The notes under the pieces were generated by a model, which saw only the letters and a list, made by a program, of their open reading frames with translations, was not told the DNA's origin and ran no database searches. From a virus (Duplodnaviria > Heunggongvirae > Uroviricota > Caudoviricetes), in IMG/VR virus record IMGVR_UViG_2671180603_000001: DNA of 13,077 nt; one strand, 5' to 3'. The stretch's first letter is position 1, and every line of letters begins with the position of its first letter. A program made the translations under genes and the position numbers. Shown piece by piece: positions 5,566-9,064 of the stretch.

Positions 5566-5696
5566 TTCTTAAAACCTCCTCAAACGTATTCTGACGCATT
5601 TTTCATTCTCGCTGCTATATAAATACCTTGCACGCGTTTACCTCGCTACAGAGCGATTGTGATGCCTTAAAAGCGATTTATTGAAGTGATATTTGC

Positions 5697-5975
5697 TTAA
5701 TCGAAATTCTTTTCTTTGATTCCTGCGGCCCTGATGGCTTTCATTACTGCAATTACCGTTTTGTCACGCCCATCCTCATAACCCATCGCATAAGCACCTT
5801 CTTCACCATCTTTCCAAAAGTCGTCATTCGATTCGGGCCAGTCGATATCCAGTTCAATAGCTGCTCGCGATGCCTGCCATATCACCCAGGCAAACTCTTT
5901 TAATTCATCGTCTCCTGTGAACTGGCTTTTGTCTTTTGACCACCAGTTTTCAAACTGTCGGTAGCTATCGTTCAC
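5697..5975 (-). CDS. hypothetical acidic Trp-rich protein
   Basis: Track ORF starts at TTG 5990; I prefer GTG at 5975 because GGGGGAGAGGG lies just upstream. No ATG near the N-terminus. Acidic composition with several Trp. Starts immediately after a terminator hairpin. Confidence 0.4.
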   Translation of the reverse strand: MNDSYRQFENWWSKDKSQFTGDDELKEFAWVIWQASRAAIELDIDWPESNDDFWKDGEEGAYAMGYEDGRDKTVIAVMKAIRAAGIKEKNFD

Positions 5976-5991
5976 TTCCCTCTCCCCCAAA

Positions 5992-6019
5992 TAAAAAGGC
6001 CTGCGATTACCAGCAGGCC
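5992..6019 (-). terminator. rho-independent terminator after the primase-helicase gene
   Basis: Minus strand GGCCTGC-TGGTAATC-GCAGGCC followed by TTTTTATTT, about 30 nt after the primase-helicase stop. Confidence 0.6.
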
Positions 6020-6049
6020 TGCTATTAGCTCAGTGATGTAGATGGTCAT

Positions 6050-8956
6050 TTAATACTCCGTCACGTTTTCCTGTCGCCACGCCTCGTCATATTCCGATTT
6101 CGGCATATTGGCGATGTAGCTATATGGCGATCCTGATTCAAGTTGCAGGAACTGGTGCGATTGCTCGTCAAGGAACAACGGAACACCACCTTCCCAGCCT
6201 TCGCCGTTACGTTGTTTTTCAAGCATCAAAACAGATGCAGGAGACGCCAGTAGCTGTTCGTCCTTCTCTGACATCTTTTCACCACTCTGAACTCTCTGTA
6301 ACGCTCTCTCGCGAGCCTTGTTACGCCAGATGATGAAAAGGTTGTCTGTCAGGTCTGTTATCGCTCCAGAGCCTTTCACGTCCATTTTCCCGGTTGGTTT
6401 TTCTTCGCTGTCTCCTTTTCTGGAGTGAGTAACGAGAATGACGTGGGAGTTTGTTTTGTTTTTGAAGTCACAAATCGAGTCAACAAACGCTTTCTGCCCG
6501 TTATAGTCATCGTCACCTATGCCGCATTTCATCAGGCTGTCGATAATGAATAACTGGATGCCGTATCGGCGGCGAGCGTAGTCGAATATTTCGATCAGCC
6601 TGTCGGCTTTCGCCGTTCCGGTCAGGCCAAACACCCAAAGTCTTTCGTCATAAAATTTAAATGCAGAGTCAATTTCCAGCACTGGCGGCATCTTGCAGCA
6701 CGTTGCCTGACGGGTAAGTCGCTTAAGGAGAATACCAGGCTTCAGCTCAAGTGACGCGATGCACGTCTTCACACCCTGACGCATTGCCTCAAGTGCCATA
6801 TGCCCGACAACCTCGGTGTTATGCGTCGCCACATATCCCCTGGTTACATACAGGTGGCGAGGGTGATCGACCATAATACACAAGCATTCTGCATTGCCGA
6901 TTTTTTCAACATTCCTGACGAATACCCCACAGCCCTCGAATCGATGCGCAGTTAATCTGCCATTGAGTCGTGGTGAACGGATGGCCTCCCTGATTTCTCT
7001 TGTCAGTCTGATTCTTGCCTCGTATGAATCCATCCCATGCCGCTTATCGTCCTTGTATGTGTATGTCACGCCAGTTTTAACTCGCGTCCGGCATGACCCG
7101 CCGAGTGAGTTAACCAGTTGAACAACCCCATTGCGCAGTTTTTCACTTGCTGAGGAAAAAACAAGCGTTCCATCCTTCTCGACATACCCATCCGTTTCAA
7201 GCAGACCACACAGCATGCCTATACGCGTTGATTTATTTGCGGAAAAAAACACACGAGGGATGAATTTGTTTTTTGCTGTGCACCCCATTAGTCCATAACC
7301 TCGCAGGGTCTCCATGAGTGGATTTACCTGACCACGCGCCGTTGATATCAGCCAGTCCTTACCATCTCCAGAGAAGTTGTAATCAGGCAGTTCAGCCTTC
7401 ATACGCTCGATCATGTATGGCTCGACGTTTGAAAACTTCACGCTCCCATTGCTAAGACTACCATCCCCGAGAAGGGAGCCGATAACCCATGCTAATGGCT
7501 CTGAGTGGTCGCCAAAGTCACCAGTTATTTCAGGAATCCTAACGCCATTTTTGTGCCTCTTCGTTTCACTCAACCGCTTCAACCCGAAGGTATCTATCAC
7601 GCGGCGTTTCTCGCCTTTCGTGAATCCACGACTAGTGACCTCCCATAGGTGATCGCCTGCGCAATCAACATAACGACCATCTTCAAATGTGACTCGGTAA
7701 ACATCTCTAACACCCTGCGGGAATATCCCAGTGACAGTTGACGGATTGCCGTCTACTGACGCCACCTGATCGCCAATTTTTACATTCCCGTGAGTAGTCC
7801 ATGTCCCATCAGCTAAAAGAATAGGCTCATTCAGTGGGCATGCCTTTCCGTGACCGTTCACACCATTGACCAGCGTCAACTCTGCCTCACGGAACTGGAA
7901 TTTATCTGCCAGAGATTCCCACGGTGGATTAAACAGATACTGCTGCTTGCCGTAGAAAGCGTTGATAGTGTCCTGGTAAAACTCGCGCGCGCTGTAGAGT
8001 TCTTCAGGATCGAAGTAGGATGCCGTGCCGATGTACTGCCAGATTTCATCCTCGGTAACACCGTTCATCAGGCATTCGTTGATGTCTTTGTACGGCAGAG
8101 TAACAAGACGGCAACGATGTTCACCGAGTCGGCTTGCGATTTCCCTTGCGGCTTCACGACCAACATCATCAACGTCCATCGAGATGAATATTTCCTCAAA
8201 CCTGTCGAGGTTGTGATACTCAAACTCAATCCACTGTTGCTTAGCGCCTTTCCCGCCACCAAACGGCACGGATAACGCCGAGATGCCGTATTGCGCATAG
8301 CTCATACAATCAATTTCGCCTTCGCAAAGCACAACCGCCCTCACGCCAGCGTCCAGAGCCTGCCATCCGAACAGGCAAGGTTCGCAATCACCTTCTGCCA
8401 TAATGACTTTCTTCCCGTCCGGGCGCTCAGTGCTGATTCGCTTGACCTGCAACAACTCACCATCGCGTTTGTACGGAAGCACCAGAGCATCCAGTTCTCG
8501 TTCTCCATTCCACACCTTGCCGCTGACAACCTCGTAGCGCTTTACGACTTCTGGCGATATGCCACGCGATTGCAGGTACTCAAGATGGGATTCTGTTCTG
8601 GTAACGTAGTGGGCGATTTTCTTGCGATCAGGTCTGGAGAATTTCTTCTCACGTCTGGCATCGAAATGGTGATCGTCATCCTTGATACCGAGAAATGCTT
8701 TCGCTTCCTGCATAGCCTGATGCAGGTTAATTCCACGACATGCCATCCACAAATCAAGCATGTCACCGCCGTCTCCCTCAGCGAAATCAGCCCATTTTTT
8801 CTTACCGCTAAGGTTGACCTTAAGGCTGTTTCCCTTGTCACCGTTGACGTTACCGGCAACCCACTCATGCCCCTCTTTCTTGCCGTTTGGCAACAGGTGC
8901 GGAGCCACCCTGTCAACCTGCGCCCAAAGCAGGTCGCTAAGTTCTGATGGACTCAT
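6050..8956 (-). CDS. bifunctional Toprim primase - SF4 (T7 gp4/DnaB-like) helicase, intein-containing
   Basis: 968-aa ORF. Toprim motifs at residues 200-265 (VVLCEGEIDCMS, SMDVDDVG). Helicase motifs in the C-terminal part (Walker A GVNGHGKA.T split by the intein, Walker B QLFIIDSLMK, then ILVTHSRKG and KGSGAITDLTDNLFII, which parallel T7 gp4 H2-H4 as I recall them). Confidence 0.8.
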   Translation of the reverse strand: MSPSELSDLLWAQVDRVAPHLLPNGKKEGHEWVAGNVNGDKGNSLKVNLSGKKKWADFAEGDGGDMLDLWMACRGINLHQAMQEAKAFLGIKDDDHHFDARREKKFSRPDRKKIAHYVTRTESHLEYLQSRGISPEVVKRYEVVSGKVWNGERELDALVLPYKRDGELLQVKRISTERPDGKKVIMAEGDCEPCLFGWQALDAGVRAVVLCEGEIDCMSYAQYGISALSVPFGGGKGAKQQWIEFEYHNLDRFEEIFISMDVDDVGREAAREIASRLGEHRCRLVTLPYKDINECLMNGVTEDEIWQYIGTASYFDPEELYSAREFYQDTINAFYGKQQYLFNPPWESLADKFQFREAELTLVNGVNGHGKACPLNEPILLADGTWTTHGNVKIGDQVASVDGNPSTVTGIFPQGVRDVYRVTFEDGRYVDCAGDHLWEVTSRGFTKGEKRRVIDTFGLKRLSETKRHKNGVRIPEITGDFGDHSEPLAWVIGSLLGDGSLSNGSVKFSNVEPYMIERMKAELPDYNFSGDGKDWLISTARGQVNPLMETLRGYGLMGCTAKNKFIPRVFFSANKSTRIGMLCGLLETDGYVEKDGTLVFSSASEKLRNGVVQLVNSLGGSCRTRVKTGVTYTYKDDKRHGMDSYEARIRLTREIREAIRSPRLNGRLTAHRFEGCGVFVRNVEKIGNAECLCIMVDHPRHLYVTRGYVATHNTEVVGHMALEAMRQGVKTCIASLELKPGILLKRLTRQATCCKMPPVLEIDSAFKFYDERLWVFGLTGTAKADRLIEIFDYARRRYGIQLFIIDSLMKCGIGDDDYNGQKAFVDSICDFKNKTNSHVILVTHSRKGDSEEKPTGKMDVKGSGAITDLTDNLFIIWRNKARERALQRVQSGEKMSEKDEQLLASPASVLMLEKQRNGEGWEGGVPLFLDEQSHQFLQLESGSPYSYIANMPKSEYDEAWRQENVTEY
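6818..7840 (-). mobile_element. intein with LAGLIDADG homing-endonuclease domain (residues 373-713 of the primase-helicase)
   Basis: Starts with Cys373 in a block-A-like context (CPLNEPILLADGTW...VKIGDQVASVDG, similar in pattern to the Sce VMA intein start). Ends ...YVATHN followed by Thr714, the canonical HN plus nucleophile. Two LAGLIDADG-like motifs inside (WVIGSLLGDGS at 490-500, GMLCGLLETDGYV at 580-592). Boundary codons checked on the DNA. Confidence 0.75.
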
Positions 8957-8974
8957 ACTTTAACCGTCCTGAAT

Positions 8975-9064
8975 CGCATTCTGACGCAATATTTTTTTAT
9001 CCTGTGTATTCGTCAGACCGTCGTTTATCGCACTACAGCGCGTCTGATGGCGTTTAAACGCCAT
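8975..9064. promoter_or_regulatory. structured intergenic region between initiator and primase-helicase genes
   Basis: Inverted repeat TCTGACG(C)AATA (arms around 8980-8990 and 9007-9017) flanking an AT-rich core, plus a perfect 18-bp palindrome ATGGCGTTTAAACGCCAT (9047-9064). The left arm is also part of the leader motif shared with the 71-aa gene. Confidence 0.4.

Follow-up and report, generated by a model that had tools for sequence, protein, structure and literature searches.

A repeated intergenic cassette in the early-right operon of a 933W-like prophage as a candidate portable translation-initiation leader and mosaic joint

The 13,077-nucleotide (nt) stretch of Caudoviricetes DNA held as IMG/VR virus record IMGVR_UViG_2671180603_000001, here called the window, carries two similar leaders on its minus strand, one ahead of a 71-amino-acid (aa) gene, orf71, and the other ahead of a gene for a 968-aa primase-helicase. 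We find that these leaders are the 3' ends of two homologous (paralogous) intergenic cassettes: copy A (5566-5696, 131 nt), which is the whole orf97-orf71 intergenic region, and copy B (8957-9072, 116 nt), which separates the primase-helicase gene from a 35-aa open reading frame (ORF). Both belong to a family of elements 115-135 nt long that lies in the replication/nin part of the early-right operon in a subset of lambdoid phages, and no description of the cassette was found in the literature searched. The window as a whole is the early-right (pR) operon, on the minus strand, of a 933W/Stx-like lambdoid prophage; Stx phages match about half of it at 94-96% identity by megablast. Our favoured interpretation, which we regard as evenly balanced between right and wrong, is that the cassette is a portable intercistronic translation-initiation element and also a mosaic recombination joint.

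Results

Two leaders that end homologous cassettes

An earlier note on this DNA, made from the sequence alone, had described a core motif shared by the two leaders, and the motif is indeed present at both sites, as CGTATTCTGACGCA at plus-strand positions 5585-5598 and as CGCATTCTGACGCA at 8975-8988; on the coding (minus) strand it reads TGCGTCAGAAT(A/G)CG. The identity of about 78% that the note had estimated by hand is borne out by a repeat finder, which aligns 5568-5603 with 8958-8993 at 78% over 36 ungapped nt. The proposed distance of 19-20 nt between motif and ATG holds for copy A (19 nt) but not for copy B (18 nt), and the similarity is not limited to some 32 nt, as had been supposed, because the whole intergenic regions align over about 110 nt with a few indels.

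Chance similarity of the leaders is rejected by shuffle scores and by the rarity of the shared 11-mer. The local alignment score of A against B is 38, compared with 16.0 +/- 2.3 (maximum 28) in 2000 dinucleotide shuffles, none of which reaches it, and a second scoring scheme gives 35 against 10.3 +/- 1.8. The exact 11-mer TGCGTCAGAAT occurs at two sites only in the window, both in the leaders; with at most one mismatch, 0.29 matches are expected in the window, and at least two occur in 5 of 200 shuffles.

Read 5' to 3' on the coding strand, the parts common to A and B are block 1, AAT(C/G)G..TTTAA..CA, and block 2, CTGTAG.G..TAAACG, followed by a dissimilar patch, an A-rich tract, TGCGTCAGAAT(A/G)CG, NTTN, a Shine-Dalgarno sequence and ATG. 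For copy A, which matches the family profile at nhmmer E=8e-41, multi-class alignments place conserved blocks 2 and 1 at 5633-5679 (CTGTAGCGAGGTAAACGCG, then AAATCGCTTTTAAGGCATCA). Its patch, here GGTATTTATATAGC, is at 5614-5629, and its core box, TGCGTCAGAATACG, at 5585-5598, with the family-invariant part TCAGAAT(A)CG at 5585-5594. The Shine-Dalgarno sequence of orf71, GAGGAGG, lies at 5575-5581, 9 nt before the ATG at 5565-5563. In copy B the core box TGCGTCAGAATGCG occupies 8975-8988, and a Shine-Dalgarno-like AGGACGG lies at 8964-8970, 7 nt before the primase-helicase ATG at 8956-8954. All of these features are on the minus strand, and both Shine-Dalgarno assignments were read from the sequence.

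A family with a near-invariant end

A profile of A and B finds a third class, C, in Klebsiella phage phiKp_30 and in sequence L102 (E about 1e-12), where it stands directly after ninA/tR2 and directly before a NinB variant. A metagenome scan adds classes D and E, both on the single contig L197 (also on L200). Class E is a diverged C and likewise stands before a NinB variant. Class D resembles B; it comes after an O-gene fragment with iterons, and no real gene separates it from the next cro-like gene; the homology of copy B with class D extends about 15 nt into the upstream ORF. Lambda and P22 contain no family member (best nhmmer E=0.74). Contig L197 (ERZ1034973 NODE-1092) is unusual in its own right: positions 1-1560 comprise an N gene, the O-gene fragment with four GTGCAGGAGATTCAC iterons and the gene-less class-D cassette, after which come an operator-like palindrome and the cro-like gene, with no cI, an odd immunity region.

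The cassette begins at the stop codon of the preceding ORF or just within it. Two conserved blocks come first, then a short patch that is hypervariable and prone to indels, and after this the A-rich tract, the box, NTTN and a strong Shine-Dalgarno sequence, which leads to the start codon of the next gene. The end of the family is near-invariant, TCAGAATGCG-NTTN-AGGAGG-start, and in multi-class alignments the invariant columns cluster in TCAGAATGCG-NTTN-AGGA-G-TT. No part of the family is better conserved than the 10-nt box TCAGAATGCG, which closely precedes the Shine-Dalgarno sequence, and this conservation suggests constraint. In almost every pair of classes the longest exact match, of 11-28 nt, lies in the box or the Shine-Dalgarno sequence, and the patch is indel-prone and unrelated in sequence at the same position in all classes. 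Class C has AGGAGG 7 nt before a GTG start; the ORFs downstream of A, B and C all have Pfam or PHROG matches, and each is preceded by a Shine-Dalgarno sequence.

The two copies in the window differ greatly in how widely they occur. Copy A is the ordinary orf92/97-orf71 spacer of 933W-type phages, whose O, P and ren genes are of lambda type; it occurs in 184 of 50,697 phage records at 90-96% identity, and the orf97-A-orf71 block has matches in 656 of 5426 complete E. coli genomes. Diverged DUF7301 homologues have either the standard cassette A upstream or no cassette. Copy B is rare (one phage record, phiKp_30, 2 of the 5426 E. coli genomes and a handful of IMG/VR contigs), and its carriers have immunity either of lambda type (rexAB) or of 933W type, and a primase with or without an intein.

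Within class A, variation concentrates in the patch: in an alignment of 45 sequences that are nearly identical elsewhere, 12 of the 17 patch columns are variable, as against 12 of 216 in orf71; block 2 is hypervariable as well, with 6 of its 19 columns variable. An impression of "ultra-conserved non-coding blocks" within this class proved to be an artefact of mixing two orf71 alleles.

Two peculiarities of the class-A patch may be recorded here. Many copies (L006, L013, L016 and others) have GCCGATAA, the -10 consensus of sigma-28 (FliA), 14 nt after TAAG/TAAA, and the window copy has TATTTATATA instead (5614-5640 region); the match could be chance or a strain-specific flagellar-sigma promoter. 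The two commonest patch variants, GGCATGCC and GGTATACC (compare window positions 5616-5627), are both perfect palindromes that stand a complementary double change apart, with single-change intermediates in existence, a pattern that suggests either quasi-palindrome template-switch mutation or selection for the dyad.

Cassette ends at mosaic joints

Among the explanations offered by the earlier note, a mosaic recombination joint fits the comparative data well: identity breaks off at the orf71 start, copy B is a clean indel, and related cassettes abut three different genes and one non-gene. When the window is compared with 933W-type phages, the stretch that begins at ninA/tR2 and includes orf97 and cassette A is 92-100% identical. 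The next stretch, which consists of orf71 (beginning with its start codon) and lar, has 52-86% identity, and ninB is back at 96-100%; at the orf71 ATG the values step from 96% to 75% and on to 52%. The orf71 of the window is a diverged allele with 70% nucleotide identity to the 933W-type allele, and its product is about 56-64% identical to the products of common alleles. On the other side, the sequence directly upstream of cassette A differs in some contigs (L015-type), and in phage F451 only the final 17 nt of the leader, Shine-Dalgarno sequence included, stand between tR2 and orf71. Different genes follow classes A, B, C and D, and every copy spans the interval from upstream stop codon to downstream start codon. 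On the evidence of these alignments, the cassette ends are recurrent mosaic breakpoints, because of the break at the orf71 ATG, the varied left flanks of A, the F451 joint and the differing partners of C and D.

The same kind of comparison shows copy B to be a recent, derived insertion, about 115 nt long, by which the primase-helicase gene lost its coupling to the 35-aa ORF, because none of 50 primase loci from species-representative genomes carries a B-like element (nhmmer E<=10) and its flanks are 94-100% identical to those of the B-less phage mEp043, relative to which B is a clean extra segment. In mEp043 and F451, which lack B, the 35-aa ORF meets the primase start through an ATGA or TAATG overlap and the primase Shine-Dalgarno sequence lies inside that ORF; the B-less junction in the comparison phage is a 14-nt coupled junction. 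Likewise, most of the roughly 30 enterobacterial loci among the 50 have the small ORF overlapping the start of the primase gene or ending directly against it. The earlier note had held that the motif should recur at homologous loci, and the outcome is mixed: most orf71 loci do have it, but most primase loci, including all 50 of this sample, do not.

The 35-aa ORF (9073-9180, minus; phrog_21848), which is normally translationally coupled to the primase gene, deserves mention for its own sake. An ORF of this kind (MKSKIKSLL.AGYNHGW...) lies between initiator and primase genes in about 30 enterobacterial species (L107-L135), its stop usually overlapping the primase start, and it is probably a real, unannotated coupled gene.

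The longest exact matches between copies measure 11 nt for A and B in the window, 14 nt for a 933W-type A and B, 19 nt for B and C, 24 nt for C and D and 28 nt for B and D.

RNA structure, terminators and antitermination

A processing site, another of the suggestions in the earlier note, finds no backing in the form of a structured element: there is no consensus RNA structure across classes and no Rfam match. RNAalifold over classes A, B and C yields 3 pairs at -2.2 kcal/mol, essentially no consensus structure, and a search of Rfam at E<=1 returns nothing inside A or B, the matches in the window (C4, IsrK, c4-a1b1 and two tRNAs) lying elsewhere. A scan for intrinsic terminators detects none in A or B, the nearest being tR2 at 5997-6020. 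The inverted repeat that had been noticed at the helicase copy does exist, as TCTGACG at 8980-8986 and CGTCAGA at 9011-9017 around the variable patch (8980-9017), and can be extended with one bulge, but it is not conserved in other class-B copies, being down to 4-6 bp in L102, L106 and L161.

We consider it quite improbable that the cassette acts as a structured RNA, whether as a processing site for RNase III or RNase E, as a set of mRNA-stabilising hairpins or as a nut/put-like antitermination signal. B, D and E do fold mildly better than shuffles (z -1.2 to -2.4), but A and C are no stabler than theirs (z +0.8, -0.2 and -0.3). The variable patch often lies in a local stem, such as CCTAAT/ATTAGG in C, which is kept despite a 13-nt loop deletion in L159, or GUCUG(G)/(C)CAGAU in B, and the block-2 haplotypes of A differ by G-U-compatible or compensatory steps; against this, the hairpins are out of register between classes and none offers the long duplex expected of an RNase III site. 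The hairpin TCGCT-CTGT-AGCGAG of copy A shares its stem with the boxB of the window's nutR, but its CUGU loop is not a boxB-type pentaloop, the boxA-like match that it overlaps is not above chance, and both hairpin and match are absent from B and C.

As an observation on copy A itself, the stem of this hairpin (5642-5656, minus) is identical to that of the P22-type nutR boxB TCGCT-GACAA-AGCGAG (10462-10477, minus); a boxB-type stem pattern is expected 0.01 times per window, and the stem is weakened by G-U pairing in the commonest class-A haplotype.

Promoter activity

An internal promoter, weak or activator-dependent, would consist of CAGAAT as a -10 element, a GCG discriminator and a very short leader, and its role would be to launch transcription anew beyond tR2 or the initiator gene. 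CAGAAT, which is invariant in all classes, retains the critical bases -11A and -7T and is preceded by an A/T-rich tract; the variable patch would fall immediately 5' of the -35 position, where neither sequence nor length is constrained; and classes C, E and A come after a terminator. On the other hand, CAGAAT matches the -10 consensus at only 4 of 6 positions and lacks an extended -10 TG, and there is no common -35-like hexamer (AGCAGC, CACAGG, GGTGGC). A sigma-70 scan finds no site with at least 9 of 12 matches in A or B, a weak negative, as the scan also misses the genuine pR: it is too insensitive to find any site in the cro-cI divergent region (10762-10821), which must hold pR and pRM.

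Because the scan misses these real promoters, motifs were inspected by eye and experimental transcription start sites were sought. No class-conserved sigma-28, sigma-54, sigma-E, CII (TTGC-N6-TTGC), LexA, IHF, Fis, DnaA, CpxR or ops-like motif was seen. In E. coli EDL933, where cassette A of 933W corresponds to 1349312-1349442, Cappable-seq under eight conditions lists start sites for cI/pRM (1346265), for cro/pR (1346320) and at a Q-proximal site (1353622) (PMC10469882, Tables S5/S6). Among the start sites listed there, from uninduced cultures, none lies between cro and the Q-proximal site and none is antisense in cassette A. This listing speaks with moderate force against a constitutive promoter, and with no more than that because the cultures were uninduced and only the listed sites were available. 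Taking both sides together, we regard an internal promoter as distinctly unlikely.

A site for a trans-acting factor

Alternatively, the box (UCAGAAUGCG) and the A-tract may form an operator in single-stranded RNA that is recognised in trans by a repressor, an activator or a small RNA (sRNA), the factor being host-encoded or widely shared among phages and controlling translation or stability of the downstream gene, as T4 RegA does. We hold this to be possible but unlikely. Such a site would need no RNA structure, and the box is the most conserved stretch over five classes that otherwise diverge at 20-35% of aligned positions, standing at -29 to -18, within the ribosome footprint and at a near-fixed distance from the start. 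A-R-N-rich tracts adjoining Shine-Dalgarno sequences are, moreover, characteristic of Hfq sites (PMC4104026). Yet most carriers (933W type) have a single copy, so that coordinate control is not evident; carriers differ in immunity, N/nut and replication modules with no phage factor that co-varies; the window's own copy A has a substitution within the box (GAATACG); and pairing with the phage C4 or IsrK RNAs does not rise above shuffles.

A related proposal, which we think unlikely, is that the cassettes form a previously undescribed family of mobile "plug-in" leaders in which a host factor or sRNA binds UCAGAAUGCG and the A-tract and the hypervariable hairpin patch tunes control. If it were true, the bound factor would set translation or stability of whichever gene gains the cassette, here the primase-helicase.

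Two more specific candidates were tried and set aside. A leader peptide or upstream ORF is not supported, as the ATGs in GAGAATG and GAATGCG have no conserved frame or Shine-Dalgarno sequence and the second is ATA in copy A. The published prophage sRNAs AgvB/AsxR, Pas and HnrS are located in late or Q regions, not at the cassettes.

DNA-level sites and ancestry

Block 1 of the B/D lineage contains a perfect 18-bp palindrome, ATGGCGTTTAAACGCCAT (9047-9064 in copy B), which is identical in class D, has one mismatch in L102, L004 and L161 and is not palindromic in A or C. Together with the position of B between initiator and primase genes, it could point to a site that works at the level of DNA, whether an origin of replication, a site for the initiator, or an operator bound by CI/Cro or by some other protein. 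We find this exceedingly improbable: the palindrome is unconserved in A and C, neither A nor B contains iterons, most phages that share this initiator/primase module lack B, A resides in lambda-O/P-type phages, and cassettes occur with unrelated immunity regions. From these and the preceding results, the cassette is not a nut site, a terminator, an Rfam RNA or an origin.

The cassettes could also be a matter of pure history, relics of one ancestral spacer that included a former ORF end (...NRF*) and was spread by illegitimate recombination, with the Shine-Dalgarno sequence alone mattering and the conservation of the box due to recent gene conversion. There is no gene behind class D, the ninA-like ORF of C and E enters block 1 and stops at its TAA, the same frame in A is open behind a premature stop, and constraint within a class is undetectable, all of which such a history would accommodate. 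It is nevertheless improbable in our view, because all five classes keep both blocks and the box while the patch between them is freely replaced, and because B was imported intact where a 14-nt coupled junction had sufficed.

Genomic setting

Genes were called from the ORF list together with Pfam and PHROG matches of the window proteins. A cI-like S24 repressor gene (10822-11559) lies on the plus strand; the remaining genes are on the minus strand, in the order of transcription a cro-like gene (10516-10761), cII (10078-10377), an HTH_36 O-like initiator gene (9184-9915), the 35-aa ORF and, downstream of copy B, the Toprim primase-helicase gene (6050-8956). There follow ninA (5972-6049), which contains the lambda tR2-type terminator hairpin (5997-6020) upstream of the orf97-A-orf71 block, then orf97 (5697-5990; phrog_343) upstream of copy A, and orf71 (5350-5565; DUF7301) downstream of it. 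A Lar-like gene separates orf71 from NinB (4640-5086), beyond which further genes extend to Q.

Several features of this region are worth noting alongside the gene calls. The stop of the ninA ORF shares bases with a GTG (as GTGA), and it is probably at this GTG that orf97 truly starts, which would make its product about 93 aa long, as against the 97 aa of the TTG ORF; PF26207 is a precomputed assignment on 92-aa orf97 homologues, and a Pfam scan of the window's own orf97 protein matched no family. An intein-like insert (Hom_end_hint at residues 379-424, LAGLIDADG_3 at residues 579-634) lengthens the primase-helicase to 968 aa, against 626 aa in the intein-less homologues of mEp043 and an E. 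coli prophage (L106). The start regions of cII (10378-10400, minus) and orf71 (5566-5580, minus) have CTTAAGAAATG and TTTAAGAAATG, respectively, up to and including the ATG, which may be chance or a further small boundary homology. At 3532-3729 (minus), upstream of an ant-like gene, Rfam places a C4 antisense RNA, IsrK and a c4 a1/b1 target, a P1/P7-type immI control, and at 120-272 (minus), towards the Q end, a pair of tRNA genes.

Discussion

In regard to how such a cassette might work, we propose that on the pR read-through transcript its end would serve as a self-contained translation-initiation region, and that the downstream gene would be translated independently where the usual nin-region coupling, by overlapping stop and start codons, is interrupted. 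Because the same conserved end precedes different genes, it may also double as homology for the exchange of modules. Applied to the window, copy A would have arrived with the 933W-type ninA-orf97 block and would now mark the joint with the diverged orf71-lar allele, and the insertion of copy B would have uncoupled the primase-helicase gene from the 35-aa ORF and supplied it with a new ribosome-binding site.

Several points weigh against this proposal. A role of the leaders in translation is something that we infer, and in accessibility predictions for positions -20 to +12 the native upstream sequence does no better than shuffled sequence. The idea that the leader keeps the start region open, or sequesters it, was rejected accordingly, the opening energy being the same in both cases. 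An rRNA-complementary enhancer was rejected as well: complementarity to 16S rRNA does not extend past the Shine-Dalgarno sequence, the longest complement of 7 nt equalling random expectation, so that neither the 10-nt box nor distal blocks 1 and 2 have their retention accounted for. With respect to recombination, the 11-nt longest exact match between A and B in the window is too short for efficient RecA recombination. Furthermore, the class-A blocks show no extra conservation, with 4 of 95 columns variable against 12 of 216 in orf71 when the 933W-type allele alone is considered. Because constraint within the class is undetectable, the case for selection on the box comes entirely from the comparison between classes, where gene conversion (concerted evolution) could mimic constraint.

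If the proposal of a portable translation-initiation cassette is correct, it would provide a concrete, sequence-defined case of lambdoid phages rewiring gene expression during module shuffling. A spacer with a ribosome-binding site would be copied before a gene, here that for the replication primase-helicase, independent initiation would replace coupling, and a patch of homology would be left behind for further exchange. Its recognition would then be of use in annotating the early regions of Stx phages and in interpreting mosaic joints. By itself the cassette overturns nothing known.

The cassettes can be compared with other non-coding elements of phage transcripts. Among lambdoid phages, nut sites (boxA plus boxB) lie on the same transcript, and the copy-A hairpin has a boxB stem and overlaps a string that is boxA-like at 8 of 9 positions. 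A boxB, however, has a GNRA-like pentaloop where this hairpin has the tetraloop CUGU, a boxA comes before its hairpin and does not overlap it as the string does here, and neither feature is kept in B or C. The intercistronic RNase III sites of the T7 early region are paralogous and are defined by a conserved long hairpin. The cassettes resemble them in being related non-coding elements between genes of one early transcript, just upstream of gene starts, but they have no conserved duplex. The targets of T4 RegA, which are many per genome and have their cognate repressor gene present, offer a parallel in that a similar unstructured sequence overlaps or adjoins several translation-initiation regions; unlike these, the cassettes number one or two per phage and come with no candidate repressor.

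Further likenesses are found in lambdoid phages themselves. The ninR/ninA-tR2 junction of lambda has the same neighbourhood and the same operon logic, and the cassettes sit where lambda has tR2 and then ninB, but in place of the coupled nin genes of lambda and P22 they provide a long spacer and an independent Shine-Dalgarno sequence. Boundary or "linker" sequences, which reportedly figure in the modular theory of Susskind and Botstein and in the comparisons of HK97/HK022 and HK620 made by Juhala in 2000 and Clark in 2001, are short, conserved and non-coding, stand at gene borders flanking unrelated or diverged modules, and coincide with breakpoints, all of which is true of the cassettes. They differ in being borders of 20-30 nt, whereas the cassette is 115-135 nt long, has internal blocks and a hypervariable patch and is itself insertable, as copy B illustrates; its identity between classes is, moreover, mostly too low for efficient homologous exchange, except between B and D and between C and D. 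The cassette thus behaves like the conserved boundary sequences of lambdoid mosaicism, but is larger, internally organised and insertable.

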